From contig OZ024740.1 of assembly GCA_964016885.1 (NCBI GenBank), positions 400,210,001 to 400,274,000 of the forward strand: DNA of 64,000 nucleotides. Direction: 5' to 3'. The notes beneath the pieces are model-generated. The model was not told the origin of the DNA. It did not search any database and saw nothing but the letters and a program-made list of their open reading frames with translations. This stretch comes from Eledone cirrhosa (lineage: Eukaryota). Position numbers and translations under genes: made by a program. This document shows positions 326 through 55,876 of the stretch, piece after piece. How positions within the stretch are numbered: position 1 is the first letter of the stretch; every line of letters starts with the position of its first letter.

Positions 326-396
326 AACATGCAAGGACAATAACACCATCAATAACAACAATCTGCAGCAAGAATAACAACTACAAATAAAACAAG

Positions 397-3300
397 AACA
401 ACTACCACAATAGCCACCACCATAGCCACCACCACACGACCTGACCATACTACCTCCCATACAACAACAACAGGGAAACAACTACCACAATAGCCACCAC
501 CATAACCACCACCACACGACCTGACCATACTACCTCCCATACAACAACAACAGGGAAACAACTACCACAATAGCCACCACCATAACCACCACCACACGAC
601 CTGACCATACTACCTCCCATACAACAACAACAGGGAAACAACTACCACCATAGCCACCACCATAGCCACCGCCACACGACCTGACCATACTACCTCCCAT
701 ACAACAACAACAGGGAAACAACTACCACAATAGCCACCACCATAGCCAACACCACACGACCTGACCATACTACCTCCCATACAACAACAACAGGGAAACA
801 ACTACCACAATAGCCACCACCATAGCGACCACCACACGACCTGACCATACTACCTCCCATACAACAACAACAGGGAAACAACTACCACAATAGCCACCAC
901 CATAACCACCACCACACGACCTGACCATACTACCTCCCATACAACAACAATAGGGAAACAACTACCACAATAGCCACCACCATAGCCACCACCACACGAC
1001 CTGACCATACTACCTCCCATACAACAACAACAGGGAAACAACTACGACAATAGCCACTACCATAACCACCACCACACGACCTGACCATACTACCTCCCAT
1101 ACAACAACAACAGGGAAACAACTACCACAATAGCCACCACCATAGCCACCACCACACGACCTGACCATACTACCTCCCATACAACAACAACAGGGAAACA
1201 ACTACCACAATAGCCACCACCATAGCCACCACCACACGACCTGACCATACTACCTCCCATACAACAACAACAGGGAAACAACTACCACAATAGCCACCAC
1301 CATAGCCACCACCACACGACCTGACCATACTACCTCCCATACAACAACAACAGGGAAACAACTACCACAATAGCCACCACCATAACCACCACCACACGAC
1401 ATCACCATACTACCTCCCATACAACAACAACAGGGAAACAACTACGACAATAGCCACCACCATAGCCACCACCACACGACCTGACCATGCTACCTCCCAT
1501 ACAACAACAACAGGGAAACAACTACCACAATAGCCACTACCATAACCACCACCACACGACCTGACCATACTACCTCCCATACAACAACAACAGGGAAACA
1601 ACTACCACAATATCCACCACCATAGCCACCACCACACGACCTGACCATACTACCTCCCATACAACAACAACAGGGAAACAACTACCACAATAGCCACCAC
1701 CATAGCCACCACCACACGACCTGACCATACTACCTCCCATACAACAACAACAGGGAAACAACTACCACAATAGCCACCACCATAGCCACCACCACACGAC
1801 CTGACCATACTACCTCCCATACAACAACAACAGGGAAACAACTACCACAATAGCCACCACCATAACCACCACCACACGACCTCACCATACTACCTCCCAT
1901 ACAACAACAACAGGGAAACAACTACGACAATAGCCACCACCATAGCCACCACCACACGACCTGACCATACTACCTCCCATACAACAACTACAGGGAAACA
2001 ACTACCACCATAGCCACCACCATAACCACCACCACACGACCTGACCATACTACCTCCCATACAACAACAATAGGGAAACAACTACCACAATAGCCACCAC
2101 CATAGACACCACCACACGACCTGACCATACTACCTCCCATACAACAACAACAGGGAAACAACTACGACAATAGCCACCACCATAGCCACCACCACACGAC
2201 CTGACCATACTACCTCCCATACAACAGCAACAGGGAAACAACTACCACAATAGCCACCACCATAGCCACCGCCACACTACCTCACCATACTACCTCCCAT
2301 ACAACAACAACAGGGAAACAACTACCACAATAGCCACCACCATAGCCACCACCACACTACCTCATCATACTACCTCCCATACAACAACAACAGGGAAACA
2401 ACTACCACAATAGCCACCACCATAGCCATCACCACACTACCTCACCATACTACCTCCCATACAACAACAACAGGGAAACAACTACCACAATAGCCACCAC
2501 CATAGCCACCACCACACGACCTGACCATACTACCTCCCATACAACAACAACAGGGAAACAACTACGACAATAGCCACCACCATAGCCACCACCACACGAC
2601 CTGACCATACTACCTCCCATACAACAGCAACAGGGAAACAACTACCACAATAGCCACCACCATAGCCACCGCCACACTACCTCACCATACTACCTCCCAT
2701 ACAACAGCAACAGGGAAACAACTACGCCAATAGCCACCACCATAGCCACCACCACACTACCTCACCATACTAGCTCCCATACAACAACAACAGGGAAACA
2801 ACTACCACGATAGCCACCACCATAGCCACCACCACATTACCTCACCATACTACCTCCCATACAACAACAACAGGGAAACAACTACCACAATAGCCACCAC
2901 CATAGCCACCACCACACTACCTCACCATACTACCTCCCATACAACAACAACAGGGAAACAACTACCACAATAGCCACCACCATAGCCTCCACCACACTAC
3001 CTCACCATACTACCTCCCATACAACAACAACAGGGAAACAACTACCACAATAGCCACCACCATAGCCACCACCACACTACCTCACCATACTACCTCCCAT
3101 ACAACAACAATAGGGAAACAACTACCACAATAGCCACCACCATAGCCTCCACCACACTACCTCACCATACTACCTCCCATACAACAACAACAGGGAAACA
3201 ACTACCACAATAGCCACCACCATAGCCTCCACCACACTACCCCACCATACTACCTCCCATACAACAACAACAGGGAAACAACTACCACAATAGCCACCAC

Positions 3301-4056
3301 CATAGCCTCCACCACACTACCTCACCATACTACCTCCCATACAACAACAACAGGGAAACAACTACCACAAGAGCCACCACCATAGCCACCACCACACGAC
3401 CTGACCATACTACCTCCCATACAACAACAACAGGGAAACAACTACCACAATAGCCACCACCATAGCCTCCACCACACTACCCCACCATACTACCTCCCAT
3501 ACAACAACAACAGGGAAACAACTACCACAATAGCCACCACCATAGCCTCCACCACACTACCTCACCATACTACCTCCCATACAACAACAACAGGAAAACA
3601 ACTACCACAATAGCCACCACCATAGCCACCACTACACTACATGACCATACTACCTCCCATACAACAACAGTAGGGAAACAACTACCACAATAGCCACCAC
3701 CATAGCCATCACCACACTACCTCAACATACTACCTCCCATACAACAACAACAGGAAACAACTACCACCATAGCCACCACCACACTACCTCACCATACTAC
3801 CTCCCATACAACAACAACAGGGAAACAACTACCACAAGAGCCACCACCATAGCCAACACTACACTACATGACCATACTACCTCCCATACAACAACAACAG
3901 GGAAACAACTACCACAATAGCCACCACCATAGCCATCACCACACTACCTCAACATACTACCTCCTATACAACAACACCAGGGAAACAACTACCACCATAG
4001 CCACCACCATAGCCATCACCACACTACCTCACCATACTACCTCCCATACAACAACA
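397..4056. repeat. 80-bp tandem satellite/minisatellite, about 45 copies, strongly C/A-skewed
   Basis: Unit AACAACTACCACAATAGCCACCACCATAGCCACCACCACACGACCTGACCATACTACCTCCCATACAACAACAACAGGGA recurs every 80 nt; ORF track repeats at 80-nt spacing. Confidence 0.97.
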
Positions 4057-4310
4057 AATCTACTACCACACACACAACAACAAATCTTCTACCACACATA
4101 CAACAACAAATCTACTACCACACACACAACAACAAATCTACTACCTCCCATACACAACAAATCTACTACCACACACACAACAACCTACTACCACACACAG
4201 AATAACAAATCTACTACCACACGCACAACAACAAATCTACTACCACACGCACAACAATAAATCTACTACCACACGCACAACAACAAATCTACTACCTCCC
4301 ATACAACAAC
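4057..4310. repeat. ~27-bp degenerate tandem repeat at the edge of the satellite
   Basis: AAATCTACTACCACACACACAACAAC-like unit repeated about 9 times. Confidence 0.8.
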
Positions 4311-6575: not shown

Positions 6576-7447
6576 TATCATATATGCAACAACACAGCTC
6601 GCAATTTTTCATTCATATATGCTTTCCCCTTCAATGTGACCTCTCTTTTTTGTCTTCCCTTACTGCTATCCTCTTTCTCTCTCCTCCTTCTCTCTCCTTC
6701 TCCCTCTTACTTTCACTCACCCCCTCTGCTAGTCACACTCTCTCGGCTAGCCTCCTCCTCACACTTTCACTCACTCACTCTCTGCTACTCACCCTCTCTC
6801 TCACTCCATCGTCCCACACCGTACGAAATTCTTTCCTCGCTCACATTCGCACGGCCAAGATGTGTCTTTGCCTTCTCCTCAATATTCGCAAGTTCTTATA
6901 TTCAAAATCAATCATTGACTTGATTTTCTCATTTTTTTCTCTCTTTACGTTGCCTCACCATTCATGTTTGTTTACCTGTCTCTCTTCCTCCACCCAATTC
7001 TTTTTATCCCAATAACTTATTTTAGTTATTGTGTTGCTCTAGCCGGAGGTATATGGTCTGTAATGCGAAGAAATACCAATGATGCTAGTAGACAACTGAT
7101 GATGGATAGTCCTGGCTTCTATTTCTAATTCTTCATTTTATTATATATATCATATATGCAACAACACAGCTCGCCATTTTCATTTATTTTTATGTGTAGA
7201 TAGTACGGCAGTTACTTAAATGTAAGTATGTATATATGTATACGTACATACATATATGTATACAGACGTACAGTACTATGTATATATATATATATATGCA
7301 TACATGCACACATATATATATGCACGTATTGGTTTACCGAACATTTATTATAATGCTCGGTTTGTTTGTAAACAAACAAACAGCCCGAATTACGCCGTAC
7401 AGTGTTTAGGCAAACACGTCACCTTTTTGTTCAATACTGACACAAGA

Positions 7448-7490
7448 ACGATGTACTAGTTTCAAGCTTATTAGCTATCGTCAGCATCGT
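7448..7490 (-). ncRNA. Minimal type I hammerhead ribozyme
   Basis: Reverse complement reads ACGAUG-CUGACGA-uAGCU aaua AGCUu-GAAA-CUAG-UA-CAUCGU. Confidence 0.8.
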
Positions 7491-7887
7491 ATACCTTCCT
7501 GCCAGATGGTTGAACGTCTGAAAGTATATACTTTCCTTATGCATATTAACGGCCGAGCAGCCTAATTTGTATATCGAGAGAGTTTAGTCGGCCAGGCGCA
7601 CCGAAAACGATAAATGGAATAGAATGAAACGAAATTTCATTTCTCACTCTTAGTACAGCAGTTACTTAAATGTAAGTATGTATGTATACGTACATACATA
7701 TATGTATACAGACGTACAGTAGTATGTATATATATACATACATGCACACACATATATATATGCACGTATCGGTTTACCGAACATTTATTATAATGCTCGG
7801 TTTGTTTGTAAACAAAGAAACAGCTCGAATTACGCCGTACAGTGTTTAGGCAACCACTTCACCTTTTTGTTCAACACTGACACAGGA

Positions 7888-7930
7888 ACGATGTACTAGT
7901 TTCAAGCTTATTAGCTATCGTCAGCATCGT
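7888..7930 (-). ncRNA. Minimal type I hammerhead ribozyme
   Basis: Identical to 7448-7490, 440 nt away. Confidence 0.8.
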
Positions 7931-8348
7931 ATACCTTCCTGACAGATGGTTGAACGTCTTCCTTATGCATATTAACGGCTGATCAACATAATTTGCATAT
8001 CGAGTGAGTTTAGTCGGCCGGGCGCACCGAAAACGATAAATGGAATAGAATGAAACATTCGGTAAACCGATACGTGCATATATATATGTGTGCATGTATG
8101 TATATATATATACATACTACTGTACGTCTGTATACATATATGTATGTACGTATACATACATACTTACATTTAAGTAACTGCCGTACTAAGAGTGAGAAAT
8201 GTAATTTCGTTTCATTCTATTCCATTTATCGTTTTCGGTGCGCCCGGCCGACTAAACTCACTCGATATGCAAATTAGGCTGCTCAGCCGTTAATATGCAT
8301 AAGGAAAGTATATACTTTCAGACGTTCAACCATCTGTCAGGAAGGTAT

Positions 8349-8391
8349 ACGATGCTGACGATAGCTAATAAGCTTGAAACTAGTACATCGT
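8349..8391 (+). ncRNA. Minimal type I hammerhead ribozyme
   Basis: Stem I ACGAUG/CAUCGU, core CUGACGA, stem II AGCU/AGCU (closed by U-U), GAAA, palindromic stem III ACUAGU, GUA cleavage triplet (cut after 8385). Confidence 0.82.
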
Positions 8392-8623
8392 TCCTTTGTC
8401 AGTGTTGAGAAAAAAGGTGACGTGGTTGCCTAAACACTGTACGGCGTAATTCGGGCTGTTTGTTTGTTTACAAACAAACCGAGCATTATAATAAATGTTC
8501 GGTAAACCGATACGTGCATATATATATGTGTGCATGTATGTATATATATATATACATACTACTGTACGTCTGTATACATATATGTATGTACGTATATATA
8601 CATATATATATATATATAAATGC

Positions 8624-10078: not shown

Positions 10079-10083
<5 letters not shown>

Positions 10084-10136
10084 GTAAGTATGTATGTATA
10101 CGTACATACATATATGTATACAGACATACAGTAGCA

Positions 10137-10188
<52 letters not shown>

Positions 10189-10221
10189 CAGGTACACATA
10201 CATGTATGTACGTATCAGTTT
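10079..10221 (-). repeat. Fragment of the hammerhead repeat family (no ribozyme)
   Basis: AAATGTAAGTATGTATGTATACGTACATAC... matches 7668 onward and 23374 onward. Confidence 0.7.
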
Positions 10222-10706
10222 ATATATATATAATTATAGGAATAACCAAAGAGTGCTTAGAAATACAATATACACTCTTTGGTTATTCCTATAACTATAA
10301 CGGCTCTGTAGTATACTAGTTATCCTACATTGAGCTAAAACCACACTGTCATACCAAGGGCAATATATCTACATGTCTAGGCATATTGATATATTTGTCA
10401 ACGAAATATATATATATATATAATCACCCATACATGCATTATAAGCATACGGATACACACACACACATTCATATATATATATATATATATATTAACGGGA
10501 TCTTCTGAAACTAAAAAGAAGATCCCGTTAAGGGTGAAAGCAGCGATTCTTTGCTTAAACTTTAATCTGTTATTTTAATAAATATTTGCTCTAGGGTTCT
10601 TATATATTTGATATATATTTATCCTTATCGAGCCCTCTTTGGATTTTAGTCTTCACATTTATTATTATTACTATATATATATAAATGGGTGAGGAAGCTG
10701 GATGCG

Positions 10707-19352: not shown

Positions 19353-19601
19353 ATATCCAACAGCAAAGCACTCATCATTTCATTCCGTAAATTCTTCACT
19401 TATCACTTTCCGCTGTGTGGTCTACTCTATACTTGATGTAATTAATTCTTAGTGCTTGTTCTTCAGCAGCAACAGATTCAGTCTTCTTTTTCCGGTTTTA
19501 GATCACTTTTAGCCATCCATAACCAGCCTTTCTTTTCTCTGTCTGTCCTATCTTCAACATCTCTACGGAATTGTCCATACATTCTTTTTTTTTCAACTCT
19601 A

Positions 19602-19637
19602 TCTTCTGATGAAGAACTAGTGTCCGAAACGTTAAGA
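19602..19637 (+). ncRNA. Minimal hammerhead-like motif in a probable Penelope-like pLTR remnant (about 19355-19712)
   Basis: UCUU-CUGAUGA-a-GAAC uagu GUCC-GAAA-CG-UU-AAGA; one stem II mismatch; remnant ends in (TA)n. Confidence 0.55.
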
Positions 19638-20029
19638 CACTCTTCTTGCTCTTTCAAGCGTTAAACTAATACATTTCTCCATGTACTGTGCCGTTTGTTT
19701 TGTTGATTTTGTATATATATATATATATATATATTAAAGAATTAGAAAACAAGGTGAATAATTAATTTATTCATTGTTTCATAGTTGTTGAGCAGACTAA
19801 TGTATAGCAGTTAGACAACTTCATACCACCAGCTACGGAAAGGCACGTCTTATGTGGTGTCTATCATCAGAAACTATGCATATATATATATATATACACA
19901 CCTACACACACACATATATATATATATATACACACACACACGGACACACACACACACATATATATATATACGTATATCCGCACATATATATGTATGTATA
20001 TATATATATATACGTATATTATGTATATG

Positions 20030-23313: not shown

Positions 23314-23371
<58 letters not shown>

Positions 23372-23374
<3 letters not shown>

Positions 23375-23430
23375 AATGTAAGTATGTATGTATACGTACA
23401 TACATATATGTATACAGACGTACAGTAGCA

Positions 23431-23478
<48 letters not shown>

Positions 23479-24096
23479 TACACATATGCATACAGGTACA
23501 CATACATATATGCACGCATCAGTTTAGCCGACGTTTATTATAACGCCGGCCGCTTTGTTCGTTTGTTTGTCAACAAACCGAACACCCTGAATTTATTTTT
23601 TTCAACTTATCGTTTTCGGTATGCCTGACCGATTTAACTCACTCAATATGCAAATTAGGCTGCTCAGCCGTTAATTTTCATAAGGAAAGTATATACTTTC
23701 GAACGTTCAACTATCTGGCAGATGGGTAAACGGTGCTGATGATAGCTAACAAGCTTGAAACTAGTACATCGTTCCTGTGTCAGTGTTGAACAAAAAGGTG
23801 ACGTGGTTGCCTTAACACCGTATGGCATAAATTCAGGCTGTTCGGTTTGTTGACAAACAAACGAACAAAGCGGCCGGCGTTATAATAAACGTCGGCTAAA
23901 CTGATGCGTGCATATATGTATGTGTACCTGTATGCATATGTGTATATATGTATATATATATACATATATATATATATGCATGCTACTGTACGTCTGTATA
24001 CATATATGTATGTACGTATACATACATACTTACATTTAAGTAAGTGCCATACTAAGAGAGAGAAATGAAATTTCGTTTTCATTTTTTTCAACTTAT
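23372..24096. mobile_element. Second locus of the retrozyme-like family: partial minus-sense arm (23372-23594) plus one complete permuted plus-sense unit (23595-24096)
   Basis: Homologous to 7201-8600; ATTTTTTTCAACTTAT at both 23595 and 24081; flanked by (TA)n. Confidence 0.8.
23729..23773 (+). ncRNA. Minimal type I hammerhead ribozyme (variant copy)
   Basis: AACGGUG-CUGAUGA-uAGCU aaca AGCUu-GAAA-CUAG-UA-CAUCGUU; differences from 8349 fall at N7, loop II and a G-U wobble. Confidence 0.82.
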
Positions 24097-24769
24097 ATAT
24101 ATATTGACATATACATATAAAATAACAGATCAAAGTTTAACAAGAGATAATCTGTACAGAATGTAACAACATATAGTTCCGTAAGGCAACATAATAAAAC
24201 ATAACAAGAAATTCAAATATAGATACCTGGCAAAAATTATTTATATTCCTTCGTACATATTCATTTGTTACTCTTGAAATATGTTTCACCAATATATAGT
24301 GTAGTTCAATAGTCAATCTAGGATTGTCAGCGTAGTAAATTGAGCTATCTGAAATTACACGCATGATACAGATCAGGGACTGACACAAGTCGCACATGGG
24401 TTTTGGAAAACCAATGCGCCTCAGTGACGTGAATAGGTTTACCGACAGCTAGAAATAGCAGCCAAAACCTTTCAATAGTGTAAAGCTAAACTAAAAAATA
24501 TTTAGGAGCATATTACATTCCAAATTATAGATGTCATATTTGAGAAAATCTGAAAAATGCACCATATCACCTGTAGGAGATGCTCAAGGAATGATTCCAA
24601 GGAACAAATCCGAGAATTTATTATTAAATATCGATTGACACGTGTATAAATATGTATATATCTATTGACATATAAAATAACATATCAAACTTTAACAGAA
24701 GATAATCTGTAAAAATGTAATAACACAGTTCCGTAAGGTAACATAGTAAAATTGAACAAGATGCCACAT

Positions 24770-27932: not shown

Positions 27933-30900
27933 TCAAACTACAGACGTATATTCAGTGGTCCCGTTCACTCGGACCATTCTCGCTACATTCACCCACCTTT
28001 CAACAAACTTGCTAGAAGGCAGCACTTGCCTCTCCACCCTGATTTTCCTCTTCAAGTGAAACTTGAAAAAGTTAATTAGGGATTCACCGAAGAGGAAAGT
28101 GTTTGTCTTTAACCCTTTTAACCTTGTCCACCACACAATCTCTTTCGCCATGGCCACCAGGCAGTTGAAAACCGTCTGCCCTTCCTCCTCGAAGGAAGAC
28201 GGCGAGACCATCTGCCCAATGGACTCAGTCGACAAACGGATCAGTCCCACACGCGACAGCAACTGTTCGACATAGCTCCACAAGTCAGCAATGCTCGGGC
28301 ACTGAACGAGTGCGTGCACGACGGTTTCGTCGCTCTGCGCGCATCTCGGACAGGCTCGGCTGACGGCACTTCCGTGCCTGTAGAGCTTATCTCGAACCGG
28401 CAGCGCTCCCCGGTAGCACTGCCAGGCCAGGGATTTTGGGAAGTTATCCATAGGCCCCGGGCTGAAAGTTCTCCGGAAGAGAGCAAACAGCTGATCTTCT
28501 TCGACGCACAGGATCTCTTCGAGAATGTCGTCGCTCTTCCCCACGACTAGTCCTCTATAGAACGCCGAGGTGGATGTTCCACCGATACTGGTGCCCAGCT
28601 GGGAGAGGGCAGTGAGCGCCTGGAGACATTCCAGTTTCCAAGCGCTATCCCTCGGTCTTTTTCTGACCCAGGACTGCAGCTCCGTCAAGGAGACGAGCTG
28701 TGGAAAAACGTGCCTGGCGAACGGCGACCATACCTGTTCACCATCAAGGAAGCACCAGAGATGTCGCAGCCTTAGCGCATGTTTGCGCATCATCAGCCAT
28801 GGCATGCCCAGTCCTCCACGCAACGGGTGTTGACAGCAGATGGATCGTCTGACCATGGGAGCGCGTCCCTTCCACAAAAAGCGGAAGAGGAGGCGCTCTA
28901 TTTTGGTTAGAGTTGGGCTGGAGCAAGGGACGACGGTGAGGTGGTAGCAGATGACGGATGCGATGTACGCATTCGCCACCTCCGCCCGGCCTTTCAGGGA
29001 CAGCTTCCTCTCAGCCCATTTCTGGGTGAGGGAGTCCACCCTGCTCGTCACCTCGTTCCAGTTTTTCTCCATCTGGAGGTCCGGTCCGAACCAAACCCCG
29101 AGCAATTTAACCGGTCCGTCCGTCCAACGCCCCACGACGCTGTCGGACGGCATGGACTTGCCTCTCCAGGTGCCGAGCTGCAAACCCACCAACTTTTCCA
29201 GGTTTATCTTTGCTCCTGTCACAGCTTCGTATTCTTTGAGAGCGGTGCTGAGCATCTGGACGTGTCTGGTGCTCGACACCACCACGGTGAAGTCGTCAGC
29301 GTAAGCCGACTCGGATTTCCCGCATCCTAGTTCACGTGGGACGCCCCTCATCGTCCCCAGTTTGTGCAGTAACGGCTCGAGAGCCAATACGTACAAGAGG
29401 GACGAGAGGAGACAACCCTGGTGGACTGAGCGCATGATGCTGAACGGCTGCGATATGTGACCGTTCACTCTCACAACTGAGCAGATATCGCTGTACATTG
29501 CTGCGATCCAACCCCTGAATACAGGCCCGAAACCGGCTGCCTCGAGGACCGCCGCCAGGTACCGATGGTCGACCCTATCGAATGCTTTGGATTGATCCAA
29601 GTTGATCAGGGCCCCACCCTTGCCAGGTTCCTTAACCACCCTCTCTATGATGTATCGCATGAGGTGGAGGTTGTCGTGTATGGATCTGTCCGGAATGGCG
29701 CATCTCTGCGCCTCTCCCACCAGACCCTTGACGACAAGCTCCAACCTCGTTGCTAACACCTTGGCCAAAATCTTGAACTCTGCGTTTAGCAGGGTTATGG
29801 GCCTGAAATTATCAATAACATCCCCCCTTGTTCGGGTCTTTTCTCAGCAGCGCCACTGCTCCCCGGCTCACAAAACTGGGAATGCTCCAGTTCTGCTGCC
29901 AGTTACAGTAGACGTCTGCCAAGAGGTCACCGAAAAGGTCTGGCATAAATGCATAAAGCTCGTAGGGCAGACCATCCAAACCTGGCGATTTACCCCTTGT
30001 GCAGTTAACCATCGCTTCCCGTATTTCACCGGCTGTTATTGGCTTTTCGCAACACTGTGTTGCGGTCGTCGAGAGCCGAGGCAGTCCGTCGAGGTATGCA
30101 CTGAAGTCCATGCCCCGATCCGGGCCGCCGCCGCTCCCGAACAGTTCAGCAAAGTGCTGCTGAAAAGCTTCACACATCCGCTCGGGTTCGAGCATCACGC
30201 ACTCGTTTTGGTCAGACAAAGACCGAATTGTGGCTTTGTTGCCACGTCGCGCCTCTGCCACCCGGGCCCATTGGACGGCTCTTGTCCCCTCGTGTTTCAG
30301 AGCAGGCGCTCTAGCTCTGACAACGCAGCCTTCGTGTTTTGCGTTGAAGAATTGGTCGAGTGCCAATCTCGCTGCAAGCACGTCGGTTGCGATGCCTGTC
30401 CTAAACGCCTCTTCTAGCTTTCTGACTAGCTCTCCCTCTACTCTATTTTCCTTTATCATTACTCCTTTGCTAAACCTAATTGACGGGAGCAATCGTCAAC
30501 ACCTGTTGTTGACGATTGCTCCCGTCAACACCCGCTTAACTAATACGCTAATCCGGTCTCTGTAGGCTTTGCGCGCCGGGAAAGACCCGTTCAGCTTCCA
30601 GTAACCAGGCTCTTGTCTATGAAGTCTGTCTATGTCGATCTCACAGTTCACAAATTTGTGGTCTGTGTAGTCGACTATTTTAATTTGTGGACGACTTATA
30701 CTAGCCTTATCTAGTTCTCTGCAGAATACCCTATCGAGATACGAACTGGATGACCCGACGCAGTTTGTCCATGTCTACATTGGCACATTCGGGTGATCCA
30801 GTCGATACCTGTCAGATAATTCAAAACGTCTGAGCAGCTTGGTCAGGCTCTTGCACCCTCCTCCCTATCCACTAGCCCCACACGATCCATGCGTGCATCC

Positions 30901-33627: not shown

Positions 33628-33811
33628 ATAATTGTTTCTACTTTAGGCACAAGGCCAGCAATTATCCAGTGCATTACTGGTACTTTATTTTATCGACCCC
33701 GTAAGGATGAAAGGCAAAGTCAACCTCGGCGGGATTTGAACTCAGATCGTAAAGGGACGTAACTATGCTGGAAAGCATGGCGTCCGACCCTCTACCGATA
33801 CTGCCAATCCA
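33628..33811 (-). mobile_element. Near full-length SINE
   Basis: Family motifs; (TAA)n on both sides. Confidence 0.85.
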
Positions 33812-33832
33812 CAATAATAATAATAATAATAA

Positions 33833-35490
33833 TGAACAATTGCAAGGGCTATTATCCACTGTGAAGCAGTTCAGTGATGACATTAAAATGGAGTTTGGAC
33901 TGGATAAATGCGCCAAAGCAACGTTCACCAGAGGAAAGCTGCTGAAGAGTTCAGACATTAATCTTGATCGGGGGAACGTGATAAGAGAGCTTGATCAAGA
34001 ACAAACTTACAAATATCTAGGTGTTTGTGAAGGAGACGGAATCAAGCACTCGACAATGAGGGAAAGGATAAGGAAGGAATGTTACCGCAGAGTCAGAGCA
34101 ATCTTAAGAACGGAATTGAATGCAAGGAATAGGATCGATGCCATAAACACGCTTGCCATACCAGTAGTAACCTACAGTTACAATGTCATCAACTGGTCAA
34201 GCACAGAGATCCGTAGGCTCGATACAAAAATCCGAAAATTCTTAACCATGCACAGAATGCATCACCCTAAGGCAGACATAGATAGAATATATCTCCCTAG
34301 GAAAGAAGGAGGACGTGGGTTAATCCAGTTAGACATTGCGTTGAAAACTGCAACAATTGGATTATCCACATATCTAAGGGAATCACATGATTGGATGATC
34401 AAACTCGTTTTGAAACACGAAAGCACCAAAAGATCATATTCCATTACAAAAGATGCACAAAGATACAGTAATGGACTACAAATTTCAGAAGTCCCATTTA
34501 CTGCTGAAATGGAAATCACAGAAAAAGCAAAGCAGGTAAAAGTAACTGCAAAGAAAGAACTGCTACAGAAACTGGCTAAGAAATGGCAAGAAAAGCCTCT
34601 GTATGGAAAATACCCAGAGCGAGCTAACAATCCTGATGTTGACAAAACTTTAACCCATCAGTGGTTGGCATCCTCTGGACTGAAATCGGAGACTGAAGGA
34701 CTGATTATATCCGCACAAGATCAGTGTCTGCCAACAAAAAATTACCTAGCCAACATAATAAAAAATGGGTGCAGCCCATTATGCCGTGTATGCAAAAAAC
34801 AACCAGAGACCATTGACCATATAATTTCAATGTGCAGTCCTATAGCTCCAACCGAATACCTAAACAGGCATGACAGAGCTGCACAATACATACATTGGAT
34901 AATGTGTAAGCATTTTGACCTGCCCCATCAAAAGAATTGGTGGGAGCATCAACCACCTCCCATACTTGAAAAAGATCACATCTCAATCTTGTGGAACTTT
35001 AGCATCCAAACAGACCGAAAAATAGATGCAAATAGACCTGATATAATATTGAAGGACTTTCAAAGGAGGGTATGCCTGCTAATTGATATGTCTGTTCCAA
35101 TAGACAAGAATGTATCTATAAAAACATTTGAAAAATTGAGCAAGTATAAGGACCTGGAGATAGAAATTGGAAAAATGTGGAAATTGAGAACTAAAACAAT
35201 ACCAGTGGTTGTAGGCGCTCTGGGAATGATACCTAAGGGGTCTAACGACTACTTATCGCAAATCCCAGGAAACCCGCGTATAGGAGAAATACAAAAGATA
35301 GTACTAATGGGAACTGCCCATATACTAAGGAAGATCCTGTCAATATAAGTACATCACAAGTCTAAACACTAAGGATGCATGTGTGAATATGTGTGTTCTT
35401 TCTTGAACATGGCGGACCTTGTTGTCTCTTGAGGTCACTGGTTGTGACTTGGTGATAACTCGTATAAACATAAAGCAAGATAAATGCAAA
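33833..35490 (+). mobile_element. 5'-truncated R4/Dong-clade LINE with an uninterrupted RT-C/zinc finger/REL reading frame (stop at 35348)
   Basis: MEFGLDKC, YKYLG, RLYLPR-like RIYLPRKEGGRGL, CRVC..ETIDHIISMC, RHD, NRPDII..LIDMSVP..EKLSKY, VVVGALG; (TAA)n tail. Confidence 0.9.
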
Positions 35491-35515: not shown

Positions 35516-35748
35516 GTTTTCTTTATTAACCACAAGGGTTTACATAAAGTAGACATTAAGGACAGTGCAGGACAATACAGGACGGTACAAATGGGCATTT
35601 CTGCGTGTAAAAAACAAAAACAGAGGATGTAACAAAAAATAACAATGAAACATTCCACAATAGGGGGGAGACTTCGGAGGGACATTTGTGGAGAATGCCC
35701 AGTAAAAGGCCACAGTGACCCTGACCACCAAGGCAAGTGCCCTCTCCC

Positions 35749-35750
<2 letters not shown>
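35516..35750 (-). mobile_element. Tx1-like 3'UTR-only fragment (subfamily A-like)
   Basis: Similar to 27634-27920 (CAGGACGGTACA, CCCTGACCACCA.GGCAAG.GCCCTCTC). Confidence 0.75.
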
Positions 35751-35779
<29 letters not shown>

Positions 35780-38596
35780 TAAAGAAACAAAAGCTAAGGT
35801 AAACAAAGTCATCCCATACCTTGAGGCGAGGAGCCATCACCAGTGCAACAATATCCTCAAAGCAACAGCAAATGCGGTGAGGAAATTACTTGGCGAGAGG
35901 AAACAACAAACAAGAAAGATCAGGACCTTGGTGGAAGAAACGACTGAATGGTCACATCAGGGAAATAAAAATGACATTGGAAAGCTTGAGTCCCTACTGA
36001 ATGGGACACTAAAAAACATAGACACTAAAAATAGACTGGAAATAAAGTACAAAACTAGGAGGAAAAAGCTAAATATTATCATAGAGGAACTGAAGCAACG
36101 CATTGTAGCAAGGAGTGCACACATTATGCGATACGAGAGCAGAGTCAGTCAGTATAGACAGAACAGCATATTTGACAACAACCAGAAAATGTTGTTTGGA
36201 CAACTTGAAGGGAAAGAAAGAGGCAACGACTTGATCCCTGAGGCGGAACAAACTAAGACATTCTGGAGAGGAATATGGAAGCAGGATGTTAAACATAATG
36301 ACCAGGCAGTGTGGATTGAGACAGTACAAAAGGAGATTAGTGAACAGGCGCACCAACAAACTGATTTGAGTATCACAGTTGAAACTCTTAAGGGGCAGGC
36401 CAAAAAACTAACCAACTGGAAATCACCAGGCCCAAATGGTGTGCAGGGGTATTGGATTAAAAATATAACATCCCTTCACCCGAAGCTGACCGCCATGTTC
36501 AATGACTGCTTGATGTCAGGTGAGGTACCAGAGTGGTTGACAAAAGGTACCACAGTTCTGGTAATGAAAGACCGAATCAAGGGTAATGATGTTACCAACT
36601 ATAGACCTATTACATGTCTGCCCGTAATGTGGAAACTGTTGACAAGCATTATGTCTGAGAAAATCTACCATCCCCTCCACACAAACAACTTGTTACCGGA
36701 CGAACAGAAAGGATGCCGAAAAAAGTCCCATGGTACAAAGGACCAGAGACTTATTGATAAGATGGTAATGAGGAATTGCAAAAGGAGACACACTGATCTT
36801 GCCATGGGATGGATAGACTACAAAAAGGCATTTGACATGGTGCCTCATTCTTGGATCACCAAAAGATTTGAGATCTTCAAGGTGGCAGATAACATCAGAC
36901 AGTTGTTGGGCAAAAGTATGAAGTCCTGGAAAACAGAGTTAACATCAGTTGGAGAATCCTGGGAGGCGTGAAGATCAAGAGAGGTATCTTCCAGGGAGAT
37001 AGTCTGTCCCCTCTGTTGTTTGTCCTTGCCCTGATGTCCCTGACCATTATACTGCGAAAAGTGAGAGCAGGATACAAGTTGAGAAAGGGAGAGCTTACCA
37101 TCAATCACCTCCTCTTCATGGACGATCTTAAGCTCTTCGGGAAGAGTGAGAAGGAGTTGGATGTGCTCGTTGACACTGTCCGTATTTTCAGCAATGATAT
37201 ATGTATGCAATTTGGTATTAGTAAGTGTGGAGTCCTTGTGATAAAGAAGGGGTAAATTGAGCAGAAGCAACGGAATCCAGGTACCAACAGGTGAGATCAT
37301 AAAGGAAATTGACACTGAAGAAGGATACAAGTATTTGGGTGTTCTGGAGGCTGATGACATCAAGAACAAAAAAATGAAGGAATTGATAAGATCTGAATAC
37401 ATTCGGAGAGTAAGGAGCGTATTAAAGTCACATCTGAACAGTAGGAATGCCATAAGTGCAGTAAATTCCCGAGCTGTGTCTATTATTAGGTACAGTGCGG
37501 GAATACTGAGATGGAATGTTGCTGAACAAAAAGAAATGGATAGGAAGACTAGGAAGCTATTGACTATCTACAACATGTTCCACAAGAGGAGTGATGTCGA
37601 TAGACTCTACTTAAAGAGATCTGAAGGTGGAAGAGGTCTTATCAGCATAGAGGACTGTGTTCAGAGGGAGAAAAACAACCTACACAAATACGTGACTGAT
37701 AGTAAGGAGCCAATGCTCAGAATTGAAGGAGAGGACAATAGACCAGGGGATGTCCAAAGAGGAAATAACAACAAGGAGAAAGAGCAGCCTTCATGAAAAA
37801 TCCCTTCATAGTACCTTCTTTGAGAAAACTGAATTCAGAGATCCACAGACATGGAACTGGTTGAAAAGAGGAGACCTTAAAAAGGCTACAGAAGGAATGT
37901 TAATGGCTGCGCAAGAGCAGGCCCTCAAAACGAAGTGGTTGAAACACCATATTTACAAGGAGGAGGCTAGCCCACTGTGTAGGATCTGTGGAGAGAGAGA
38001 GGAGACTGTGGCTCACATTGTATCCGAGTGTAAACACCTAGCCCAGACTTACTATAAAGGCTGGAGACATGATGTGATGGGCAGGATGATCCACTGGCAC
38101 CTATGAAAAGTAAACAATTTACCATATTCGGAGAAGTGGTATGAGCATAAGCTAGAGTCGGTGATGGAAAACGATCAGGTGAAGGTGCTGTGGGATTTTA
38201 GGATACAGACGGACAAGAAACTGGAACACAATAGAGGAAAAAAGATCGTGCCTTATTGTGGATGTGGCCTGCCCATTCGACACGAGAGTGCAAGAGAAGG
38301 AGAGGGAGAAAATTAACCGATACCAGGACTTAAAGTGGGAGGTAAAAAGGATTTGGAACTGCCATGAAGTCAAAGTGGTCGCGATTGTCAGAGGCGCACT
38401 AGGTACTATCTCAAAGAGTTTCCCGGGATGGTTAAAGAAAATTGGCCCCGTCACGCTTTTTGTAACGCTTCAAAAGGCATGCTTGCTGGGAACAGCAAGA
38501 ACCCTTCGATACGTCCTGAATATCTGAGGCTGCAGGTAGTGGCTTGATATTCATTTCAACAAACTTTCCAGTTAAATAACATCAATGACTGAGACT
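35780..38596 (+). mobile_element. Second R4/Dong-clade LINE (different family), 5'-truncated, several frameshifts
   Basis: NWKSPGPNG, NYRPITCL, WIDYKKAFDMVPH, GIFQGDSLSPL, FMDD, YKYLG, CRICGEREETVAHIVSEC, RHD, DVACP..EKINRY; (TAA)-rich tail. Confidence 0.9.
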
Positions 38597-45597: not shown

Positions 45598-47180
<1,583 letters not shown>

Positions 47181-51976: not shown

Positions 51977-52993
51977 GGAAGACATGATATGAAGGTTAAA
52001 AAACACTTGTGAATAGTGCAGTTTTAAATCAACATATGAAAAGTAGTTTTAGATTGATGTGTGATATTGGGAAAAATTTTTTTTGAGGTGGGGAGGTTGG
52101 AAAGGATGAAAAAGAGGAGGACATGAGAGTAAAAAGTGGAGGGGGAGGAGTATAATGAGGAAGGATGAGATAGGAGGAGAGATGGGTGATAGAGAGAGAG
52201 AGATAGCTTTTATAACTGAGAAAATTATATTGTTTTACATAGAGAGGTTGAAAAACCGTTGGAAGATAATGTATAAATTAAAAGAATTTAAAAATTAACG
52301 AAGAGAAAAATAATGTAAAGTTAAGGTTTGTATATTGAAGGGTTTAATAATATGTGCGATGAAAAGAAAATGTTAATATGTATTAAGAATAATATTTAAG
52401 GGTTTAATAATATGTGCGATGGAAAAAAAATGTTAATATGTATTAAGAATAATATTTAAGGGTTTAATAATATGTGCGATGGAAAGAAAATGTTGATATG
52501 TATTATTAAAAAAACAAAAGTAATGTAAGTAAGGATATATTGTGAGATGAGCATGAATAAGTTAGATGAAAGGGAGAAAAAAATAATGAATTGAGGATGA
52601 ATAATCTAACGTCAAAAAAATGTGTTTATGTTTACGAAGGATTTTTTCAAGGTGATATAAGGTAAGAATATATTGTATTGTGTAATAATTGTTTCTATGT
52701 TAGGCACAGTGAGAAAAGGTACAGATTAGGGGTTAGAAATTAAAAGAAAAAGAAAAGAAAAGGAAAAGGAAGAAAGGGAAGTGATAAATAGGAGTGATAT
52801 AGAATGAGTAACAAGTATTATATAATGTATAATAAATAACTTTGAAATAAGGTAGAAAGATGGGTATATTTTAAAGAAGTATATATATATATATGTGCCT
52901 TTGAGAAAAGGATTCTAAATTGATATTAGCTGTATACTTTATGGAATGTTCTGTGGAATTTATGCAAGCAGAGAGAAAACAAGTCAGTGCGTC

Positions 52994-53998
52994 TATAATA
53001 ACGCGCTTTCTAAAGCCGGCTATCCTGATAAAATCAAATATAGTAAAGAAACAAATTCTAGAAGATCTTACAGTAGAATAATTAATCATGATCATTCCAA
53101 TAACTTTAATAAAAGACCTAGATACAAAAACATAATCTGGTATAATGCTCCTTTCTCCATCTCTATTAATAATAATATTCCTAAATTATTCTTTAGTGCC
53201 TTAAATAAATGCTTCCCTCCCTCACATATCTATAGTAAAATATTTAACAAACACACTATAAAATTTTCCTATTCGACATCCTCCAACATTTCCAACCTTA
53301 TTTCTAAACACAACAATAAAATACTAAATACTAAATCTCTTCCTTCCAACACTGAATATCATAATAATAGTAATAGTACTCCCGACGTCATTGTAAACTC
53401 TAGGCTAATTTCTGCAAACCCAAATACAACGTCAAACACAACTTCGCTAAATGTTCTTAATCCCATTCTAAATCAAGAAACTATTATTCCTATCGCAAAT
53501 AACTTCTCCAATCCAATTCCTTCTATAGATAACACTAGGTCACTCGTTAATAATCTCTCTAATCGCAATTGCAATTACCCTGTTAAAAATAAATGTCCTC
53601 TCAACAACCATTGTCTTGATAAAAACTTAATCTACGAATATAAAGTTATAACTGACACCAATTCCTTCACCTATTTTGGCTCCACTTCCACCTCCTTTAA
53701 AGCTCGTCTTTATAATCATCATTCGTCTTTTAAATACCAACTTAAAAGAACCAACACGGCTCTCTCAGAACTCATATGGTCCTTGTAAGACAAAAATATT
53801 AAATATAACATCTCTTGGAAAAAAGTTTCTTCTGCTTCTTTATACTTGAACAGTTCTCTATCCAAGACTTGCAATCTCTGTCTAAATGAAAAATTTACCA
53901 TTATATCTAATTTAGATTCTATGATAAATAGACGCACTGACTTGTTTTCTCTCTGCTTGCATAAATTCCACAGAACATTCCATAAAGTATACAGCTAA
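52994..53998 (+). pseudogene. Penelope-like C-terminal region with GIY-YIG endonuclease; one premature TAA (53786-53788)
   Basis: IIWYNAPFS, KIFNKHTIKFSYS, CN..CPLNNHCL, LIYEYKV..YFGSTSTSFKARLYNH, LSELIW, CNLCLNEK, INRRTDL..CLH; read-through frame ends at 53998. Confidence 0.85.
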
Positions 53999-54960
53999 TA
54001 TCCTATACTTTATCAATTTAGATTCCTTTTCTCAAAGGCACATATATATATATATACTTTTTTAAAATATACCCATCTTTCTACCTTATTTCAAAGTTAT
54101 ATTTATTATACATTCTATAATACTTGTTACTCATTCTATATCACTCCTATTTATCACTTCCCTTTCTTCCTTTTCCTTTTCTTTTCTTTTTCTTTTAATT
54201 TCTAACCCCTAATCTGTACCTTTTCTCACTGTGCCTAACATAGAAACAATTATTACACAATACAATATATTCTTACCTTATATCACCTTGAAAAAATCCT
54301 TCGTAAACATAAACACATTTTTTTGACGTTAGATTATTCATCCTCAATTCATTATTTTTTTCTCCCTTTCATCTAACTTATTCATGCTCATCTCACAATA
54401 TATCCTTACTTACATTACTTTTGTTTTTTTAATAATACATATCAACATTTTCTTTCCATCGCACATATTATTGAACCCTTAAATATTATTCTTAATACAT
54501 ATTAACATTTTTTTTCCATCGCACATATTATTAAACCCTTAAATATTATTCTTAATACATATTAACATTTTCTTTTCATCGCACATATTATTAAACCCTT
54601 CAATATACAAACCTTAACTTTACATTATTTTTCTCTTCGTTAATTTTCAAATTCTTTTAATTTATACATTATCTTCCAACGGTTTTTCAACCTCTCTATG
54701 TAAAACAATATATTTTTCTCAGTTATAAAAGCTATCTCTCTCTCTCTATCACCATCTCTCCTCCTATCTCATCCTTCCTCATTATACTCCTCCCCCTCCA
54801 CTTTTTACTCTCATGTCCTCCTCTTTTTCATCCTTTCAAACCTCCTCACTTCAAAAAAAGTTTTTCCCAATATCACACATCAATCTAAAACTACTTTTCA
54901 TATGTTGATTTAAAACTGCACTATTCACAAGTGTTTTTTAACCTTCATATCATGTCTTCC

Positions 54961-55145: not shown

Positions 55146-55180
<35 letters not shown>

Positions 55181-55182
<2 letters not shown>

Positions 55183-55522
55183 GGGCTGTTTGTTTGTTTA
55201 CAAACAAACAAACCGAGCATTATAATAAATGTTCGGTAAACCGATACGTGCATATATATATATGTGTGCATGTATATATATACATACTACAGTACGTCTG
55301 TATACATATATGAATGTACGTATACATACATACTTACATTTAAGTAACTGCCGTACCAAGAGTGAGAAATGAAATTTCGTTTCATTTTTTCCGTTTAACT
55401 CACTCAATATGCAAATTAGGCTGACGTCTGTATGCATATATGTATGTACGTATACATACTTATATTTAAGTAACAACTGTACTAAGAGTGAGAAATGAAA
55501 TTTCGTTTCATTTTTTCCGTTT
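55181..55522 (+). repeat. Rearranged fragments of the retrozyme-like family lacking the ribozyme
   Basis: TCGGGCTGTTTGTTTG.., GAGTGAGAAATGAAATTTCGTTTCATT occurs twice. Confidence 0.75.
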
Positions 55523-55876
55523 ACATATATATTTATATATATATAAATATACACCCCACTCTCAAGCATGAAACTAAAAACCATATCATTTGTACTGCCT
55601 CTCTGTTTTTTGTTCTCTGTTCATTTATTCAAATTTATATATATATATATTCCTTAGAACCTAACTAATAATTGTTCGTGGAAACCACCGCATATGCGCG
55701 AAATCGTAAATATCTTCCGCGATATTTTTTATGGACCACGTCCAATATTCGCGGTTATTCACTCTTCGCAGGTGCTCTTGGAACGTAAGCCCCACGAATA
55801 CATATATATATATAAACACACATATGCATACATTCATGCATACATACATACATACATACATACATACATACATACA

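Follow-up and report, generated by a model that had tools for sequence, protein, structure and literature searches.

Positions 23372–24096 of the window, the 64,000-nt stretch of DNA analysed here, hold a single insertion into a (TA)n microsatellite. The inserted sequence is a hammerhead-bearing monomer of ~420–540 bp, present as two arms in opposite orientation. Monomer positions are given relative to one natural 506-nt unit, with the predicted ribozyme cleavage site at 0/506. The parts of the insertion are:

23319–23371, no strand: left (TA)n target microsatellite (from the sequence and tandem repeat rows at 23320–23480)
23372–23596, minus strand: inverted arm, 5'-truncated and without a ribozyme (monomer ~59–293); its 3' end, 23372, is fixed site 1
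23595–23596, no strand: head-to-head arm junction, a 2-nt overlap within an imperfect 5-nt match
23595–24096, plus strand: plus arm, monomer 335 to 350 (486 nt of monomer plus 16 nt); its 3' end, 24096, is fixed site 2
23705–23791, plus strand: predicted extended stem I hairpin bearing the ribozyme (fold with z = −1.66 only; lineage changes at 23711 and 23718 retain pairing)
23731–23771, plus strand: type I hammerhead motif (from the motif scan, variation and covariation)
Within it, plus strand, from the motif scan: stem I 23731–35/23767–71, core 23736–42, stem II 23743–56 and GAAA 23757–60
23910–24030, plus strand: AT-rich, microsatellite-like segment inside the monomer (from unit-to-unit length variation)
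24040–24096, plus strand: 57-nt "tail" from site 1 (24035–24039) to site 2 (24096), with a predicted hairpin; plus arm only
24097–24104, no strand: right (AT)n target remnant (from the sequence)

The two arms are 99% complementary over 151 nt (23446–23596 and 23827–23977). The inverted arm ran for ~225 nt, and the plus arm for one lap of the monomer plus 16 nt. No target-site duplication can be read in the flanking (TA)n/(AT)n, and no open reading frame (ORF) of 150 aa was found overlapping the insertion. There is no LTR and no coding capacity; the ends are truncated arms joined to TA, and it is from this end structure that PBS/PPT are judged to be absent.

A sequence-only reading of this DNA had taken the insertion for one circularly permuted unit, overlooking the inverted second arm at 23372–23596. 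It had also pointed to a 16-nt repeat at the two ends of the plus arm. The repeat is as described: exactly 16 nt are identical at 23595 and 24081, with a period of 486, and the exact match stops on both sides. Its special status was not borne out, the 16-mer being a normal part of every monomer, with 1,286 exact read-through matches; as internal monomer sequence, it is also ruled out as a target-site duplication. Because 5' ends are scattered in this family and 3' ends are fixed, the 16-nt redundancy is a truncation just past one unit beside a fixed end.

Four full hammerhead cores of the family lie in the window, at 8355 and 23736 on the plus strand and at 7484 and 7924 on the minus strand. 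The other family copies in the window are:

7201–8056, minus strand: subfamily B inverted arm of two units (cores 7484 and 7924), with an atypical 3' end at 7201, ~15 nt past site 1, and a non-TA flank
8058–8620, plus strand: subfamily B plus arm (core 8355), with its 5' junction at 8058 and its 3' end blurred in (TA)n
10079–10222, minus strand: short truncated family arm ending at site 1, with (TA)n on both sides
55179–55523, plus strand: internally deleted copy without a ribozyme, ending at site 2 and adjoining AT-rich DNA

The difference in register that had been noted between the 23372 copy and the starts at 7201 and 8058 compares unlike kinds of position: 7201 is the 3' end of a minus arm, while 8058 and 23595 are 5' inversion junctions.

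Elsewhere, the window contains LINE-type RT frames (RVT_1 and/or zf-RVT) that are unrelated to the insertion (27933–29843 on the minus strand; 33753–35348 and 35706–36971 on the plus strand), as well as an 80-bp minisatellite (46 copies; 397–4057) and a (GTA)n run (526 copies; 45600–47177). Inverted 60-bp tandem units ~2 kb apart (52332–52505 and 54433–54606) surround a 289-codon frame (52919–53788) with no Pfam hit; the whole of 52332–54606 may be a DNA transposon bounded by terminal inverted repeats. A ~130-bp repeat at 19583–19715, which ends in (TA)n, carries a hammerhead-like motif of a different, minimal kind, with its core at 19606. This repeat has 3,595 candidates in the genome, 88–92% alike, and is probably the end of another Penelope-like family.

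The 23372 copy is an ordinary, young member of its family. In the 3.0-Gb genome, a 33-letter core pattern has 24,518 exact matches (control, 0), and a looser core pattern has 28,026. Of 1,081 candidates for a 301-nt query from the 23372 copy, 40 were scored, and nine of these places, the query's own copy included, are 100% identical to it; the subfamily is therefore young. Units measured from cleavage site to cleavage site are mostly 419–544 nt, with up to 11 per arm, and fall into three lineages: A (the 23372 copy), B (the 7201/8058 copies) and C. At monomer position 25, the A run that follows the extended stem has grown to 13–44 nt in some units (L142, L021 and L182), and in L142 this expansion is found in alternate units. 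Three further organisms (runs X4–X6) have 68–74% of the sampled words, at low depth or without any contig placed, reflecting either relatives or traces.

Two more distant families, D and E, share the motif layout and inverted arms of the monomer family, as seen in fetched flanks. Family D (460-bp unit; L170:195–1499, also L247, L101 and L268) aligns along its length with the monomer; it has a canonical, G-C-closed stem II, a different stem I and the same two-arm, two-end layout. Family E (L129:5640–8001, L123 and L163) has a 310-bp tandem hammerhead unit in at least seven units, with an inverted arm and a U.U at the base of stem II.

Arm ends, pairing and junctions

Arms of this family end at two places. 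At site 2, 446 loci of this subfamily genome-wide end exactly as the plus arm does at 24096, running into TATATA. At site 1, ~57 nt upstream, 1,726 loci end as the inverted arm does at 23372. Copies that read through the site-2 stretch outnumber those that terminate there, 1,286 versus 446. Ends that abut a TA run and lie no more than 6 nt from the cleavage site are rare (16 matches at 12 places), and with 12 places only, priming at the cleaved RNA end is ruled out.

The same two sites emerge from 78 loci picked on internal motifs, not on ends. Of their 149 arm ends, 53 fall at site 2, 41 at site 1 and 26 elsewhere, with none at the cleavage site and 29 not assignable within the monomer's microsatellite; some short calls in this set are spurious CATA repeats, and old copies blur ends. 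A TA repeat lies within 24 nt of 49/53 site-2 ends and 32/41 site-1 ends. The freely permuted ends of the earlier reading are therefore ruled out by the two fixed 3' sites, 24096 itself being a family-wide fixed 3' end. Fixed termini, which that reading had named as evidence against its view, were found in part: 3' ends are fixed, at two sites, and 5' ends vary. Variation confined to 5' ends is what any truncated retro-insertion shows, and the 16-nt redundancy is no sign of free permutation.

The two sites are divided between the arms. We considered 84 site-2 loci (the first of 100 listed of the 446; the 23372 copy is included, and L189 and L190 are probably one duplicated locus), 55 of which have an adjacent inverted arm. 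The partner arm ends at site 1 (276–293) in 44 cases, at site 2 in none and elsewhere in four, with seven not assignable (two of them at the locus edge); two further site-2 loci have inverted site-1 arms of ~12 nt. Starting from site 1 (30 loci, the first of the 1,726, tallied by eye), 21 have an inverted arm: 17 of these end at site 2 (338–350), one is cut by the locus edge and three end at 127, 222 and 278. The 78-locus set holds 47 pairs, of which 20 are mixed, one is site 2 with site 2, none is site 1 with site 1 and 26 have another or an unassigned end. A free choice per arm would put about half of the partners at the anchor's own site. The one site-2 pair, L026, is set aside, having arms of different haplotypes and probably being two insertions. 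Inverted pairs use one site per arm, with none clearly sharing a site, and this is the Penelope "tail" signature.

At the other end of each arm, 5' ends in the 84-locus set are scattered over the whole monomer. A cluster of 5' starts at 471–478 has unrelated flanks and hence marks no common larger element. Arms that stop at whole laps (window 330–370) number 11, versus 5.2 expected under a constant-hazard model of 82 loci (p = 0.018, uncorrected, 10 windows; the other windows fit); the test is open to AT-microhomology bias, and the L172 arm was entered with a wrong negative length. This excess is a hint, and the sole sign, that more than chance lies behind the 16-nt overshoot. Of the site-2 arms, seven fall short of ~70 nt, and five of these stop at 288–302, where the other arm was primed; stops at the other arm's priming point are suggestive only. 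The arms overlap at 28/55 junctions, with 14 further junctions not assignable.

Variation in the hammerhead ribozyme

All core nucleotides of the hammerhead are present in the 23372 family. Stem II has a U.U at its base, a variant described as active in the accessible text of PMC7229834; stem III is 2-bp palindromic, and cleavage is predicted after 23766. A scan of the window at the Rfam gathering score gave 0 matches, and minimum-energy folds of the ribozyme region barely beat shuffles (z = −1.66 and −0.25). Eight of nine Xenopus retrozymes tested in vitro showed no cleavage (10.64898/2026.07.22.740005).

The sequence-only reading had argued for selection on catalysis from a comparison with the copy at 8349. 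The 41-nt ribozyme does differ from that copy at three positions only: 23733 (stem I, A-U to G-U), 23740 (N7) and 23750 (loop II). The flanks are more diverged, with 58 of 281 other aligned columns differing, but in this one pair the difference from the ribozyme is only marginally significant (Fisher p = 0.053). Changes between the two copies also fall in the extended stem I and the internal loop (23701–23729 and 23777).

Across the family, common variants are rarer in the ribozyme than in the flanks. We compared 100 units from 60 loci picked on a motif outside the ribozyme, scoring a column as variable when its second allele occurs in at least seven loci. Counting substitutions only, 4/41 ribozyme columns vary, versus 23/84 in the flanks (p = 0.036); with gaps, the counts are 4/41 and 42/103 (p = 0.0003), a signal that is carried by only about three lineages and has low power. 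None of the 14 catalytic and stem III positions varies. The four variable columns are N7, loop II and the two partners of a single stem I pair (G-U, 22 loci; U-G, 27; A-U, 13; other, three). The 3' strand of the extended stem is similarly quiet, with 1/20 positions variable. Private substitutions per column in the core (1.5) equal those of the upstream flank; the downstream flank has 3.2, a value inflated by small lineages.

Stems I and II covary across related families. With families D and E added, 8/12 pairs change on both sides and 93% of cells pair; the covariation score is 0.51, versus 0.17 for shuffled and at most 0.14 for slid alignments, in a set of 10 hand-picked sequences, with D and E contributing the majority of the double changes. 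Selection on the ribozyme is thus supported at the level of sequence comparison. The constraint that the earlier reading saw stands, and it appears to cover RNA structure more broadly than catalysis alone.

Template, priming and candidate enzymes

Units and arms of one insertion have a common history. Wherever 100 or more positions could be compared (31/31 loci), a locus's two arms differ less from each other (median 0.5%) than from arms elsewhere (5.3%), and in eight loci the two arms share a variant that is absent from the rest of the 84 loci. Among loci with arms of at least four units, 6/17 carry a locus-unique variant in every unit; L155 has 11 units without a difference in the scored parts. 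In L142, two haplotypes alternate (ABAB) along each of the arms, which finish with a unit of the same type. Inside arrays, the cleavage site is read through seamlessly. A circular or multimeric RNA template, as proposed in the sequence-only reading, is supported because of this read-through, the haplotypes common to units and arms and the one array with ABAB in both arms; the route by which that reading arrived at it, permuted starts, does not hold, since the 3' ends, where reverse transcription starts, lie at two fixed sites. The common haplotype of arms and units favours, without proving, rolling-circle reverse transcription, and a circle would be the simplest way to carry a new variant into all units and both arms. 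Because patterns of DNA-level duplication are seen in L117, L130, L148 and L197, not all period-2 patterns come from circles; in L117 and L130, ABAB points to DNA duplication and not to a dimer circle.

Several RT/GIY-YIG-like ORFs lie in the flanks of insertions of this family. One is part of a near-intact Penelope-like partial tandem (L134:465–4922). Its frame has 1,047 codons; an endonuclease-like part lies downstream, separated from the RT part by one stop, and each repeat contains a hammerhead-like core. The L134 ORF has no hit in Pfam or PDB; the nearest Atlas clusters of a sister ORF have HTH_animal, GIY-YIG and RVT_1 in part of their members. Copies of the coding Penelope-like element end in (TA)n at two positions 45–57 nt apart, and at L059 and L241 the two inverted arms each end at a different one of these positions. 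Among 279 fetched loci, there is no DNA similarity between the monomer and coding elements.

The L134 ORF also has a long asparagine-rich stretch, which recalls the N-rich inserts of rotifer Penelope (PMC3846280, accessible text). At least three further families of RT/GIY-YIG-like ORFs adjoin insertions (L051, L076, L097, L129, L171, L182, L209 and others), which would fit common (TA)n targets and the nesting of insertions. The flanks also contain at least six other recurrent hammerhead-like cores.

We give a probability of about 0.6 to the reading that the insertion belongs to a young, high-copy, non-coding hammerhead repeat whose two inverted arms were placed at two fixed sites in (TA)n, likely by a Penelope-like RT/GIY-YIG protein acting in trans on a probably circular RNA. 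Tandem copies would be transcribed and self-cleave, probably as dimers because stem III is 2-bp palindromic, and be ligated to circles. A Penelope-like protein would nick both strands of (TA)n, and reverse transcription would be primed internally on the RNA, from one nick at site 1 and from the other at site 2. Both polymerases would then run on, for anything from a few dozen bases to more than ten laps, and the two cDNA ends would be joined head to head, often via an overlap of 1–7 nt. In its most specific form, that of twin-primed rolling-circle reverse transcription, a Penelope-like enzyme dimer would work on one circular ribozyme RNA (a monomer or heterodimer), with two strands primed at two fixed sites and both polymerases lapping. 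We hold this form tentatively, at a little short of even odds. If it is true, retrozyme circles are tied to Penelope enzymes by mechanism, and the one-sided tail and inverted ends are brought into one model.

A second reading keeps the element and Penelope-type twin priming and changes the template to an uncleaved linear multimer transcribed from the donor array, with the ribozyme serving another step, such as freeing the RNA from read-through transcripts. With a purified anole Penelope-like protein, uncleaved RNA was the main substrate in vitro and ribozyme mutants inserted normally (PMC11167929, accessible text). A homogeneous or ABAB donor array would yield the same daughters, and the whole-lap excess is weak. 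However, the 11 identical units of L155 and the variants found in every unit at 6/17 long loci need a monomer to be re-read at some generation, the arms overlap on the monomer and so are not two non-overlapping parts of one short linear RNA, and the catalytic core is constrained. We consider this reading rather unlikely.

Alternatively, one target-primed cDNA could fold back and prime itself, making the inverted arm a DNA copy of the first. Self-priming has been suggested for Penelope inverted junctions (PMC3846280, accessible text) and accounts for common haplotypes. Exact fold-back junctions occur at L142, M18, M31 and L255; the L142 junction is a perfect fold-back (291/293), and the second arm of this locus may have been copied from the first as DNA. 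Most junctions, however, join different registers. A many-unit inverted arm can accompany a sub-unit site-2 arm (L133, L206 and L207), and the reverse is also found, so neither arm is always the template. Self-priming also leaves the second fixed site joined to (TA)n unexplained, and as a general account it is improbable.

Spread at the DNA level, from a satellite or microsatellite-seeded repeat by recombination or a DNA rolling-circle element with an incidental ribozyme, would fit the unequal-exchange patterns of some arrays and the lack of a readable target-site duplication in (TA)n, but is largely refuted, and scarcely credible, in view of thousands of dispersed short insertions with fixed 3' and scattered 5' ends, compensatory changes in the ribozyme stems and a coding RT element with the same end signature.

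Comparison with known systems

By its sequence, the element is of a known type, and is classed as an animal non-LTR retrozyme and non-autonomous Penelope-like element. A SINE/LINE-type insertion is ruled out by the two internal fixed ends, the excess of read-through over terminated copies and the rarity of ends at the cleavage site, and an autonomous Penelope-like element by the absence of an ORF with RT and GIY-YIG endonuclease. A literature search found nothing on this family or on arm-specific ends in retrozymes, with most subscription papers, Repbase and the supplements of the 2026 preprint outside the search. The family is young and its units are short; with at least 24,518 intact cores, it offers thousands of insertions in which to count priming sites, arm asymmetry and laps. 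Its value lies in these clean, family-level end statistics, which connect retrozymes with the two-site mechanism of Penelope and open the circle model to testing.

In L1 twin priming, the two arms represent separate stretches of a linear poly(A) RNA, and the position of the second priming is variable. The insertions described here are similar in having two arms with 3' ends outward and a microhomology junction. They differ in having arms that cover common parts of the monomer, two fixed sites and no poly(A) tail.

Plant LTR retrozymes are likewise non-autonomous, and have a hammerhead-processed circular RNA of the kind that we infer here; their type III hammerhead, LTRs, PBS/PPT and 4-bp target-site duplication are all absent from our family (10.64898/2026.07.22.740005, accessible part).

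The likeness to animal non-LTR retrozymes, as far as the accessible text of PMC7229834 and 10.64898/2026.07.22.740005 describes them, is extensive: in both, the monomer is non-coding, low in GC and a few hundred bp long, carries a single type I hammerhead with a short palindromic stem III, occurs as dimers up to multimers and reaches copy numbers in the tens of thousands, in a genome that also has Penelope-like elements. Axolotl HHR_Amex2, an animal retrozyme, likewise has a U.U at the base of stem II (PMC7229834). Unlike other animal retrozymes in these texts, the monomer is 420–540 bp long with an internal microsatellite. Expression, cleavage and circles have been shown for published animal retrozymes and are proposed for the 23372 family. 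Their circles, with ligation by RtcB, are described in PMC7229834; mobilisation by Penelope-like elements has been proposed, with both texts leaving the mechanism open. The two fixed 3' sites, one per inverted arm, and the TA targets are mapped here and are not described for animal retrozymes in the accessible parts of these two sources.

The end structure has its closest counterpart in EN+ Penelope-like elements (Penelope/Poseidon, Neptune and Naiad), taken here from the accessible text of PMC11167929, PMC8557442, PMC3846280 and PMC4209133. These also have partial tandems with an inverted, 5'-truncated copy and a one-ended tail, internal starts of reverse transcription at two sites, AT-rich or (TA)n targets, a hammerhead upstream of the starts and opposite-strand ribozyme pairs 100–700 bp apart. 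A tail on one of the two inverted pLTRs is reported in PMC3846280. In vitro, reverse transcription starts at two internal sites, to which the tail corresponds, and both strands are cut and extended, with no strand difference seen in the start (PMC11167929). The tandem and inverted insertions of Penelope were described as unexplained in PMC8557442, which called for an in vitro system. Unlike these elements, our family has no ORF (RT + GIY-YIG), and its hammerhead is a full one with an extended stem I, not the minimal motif; its tail is 57 nt, versus the 30–40 bp reported, and its arms reach at least 11 short units.
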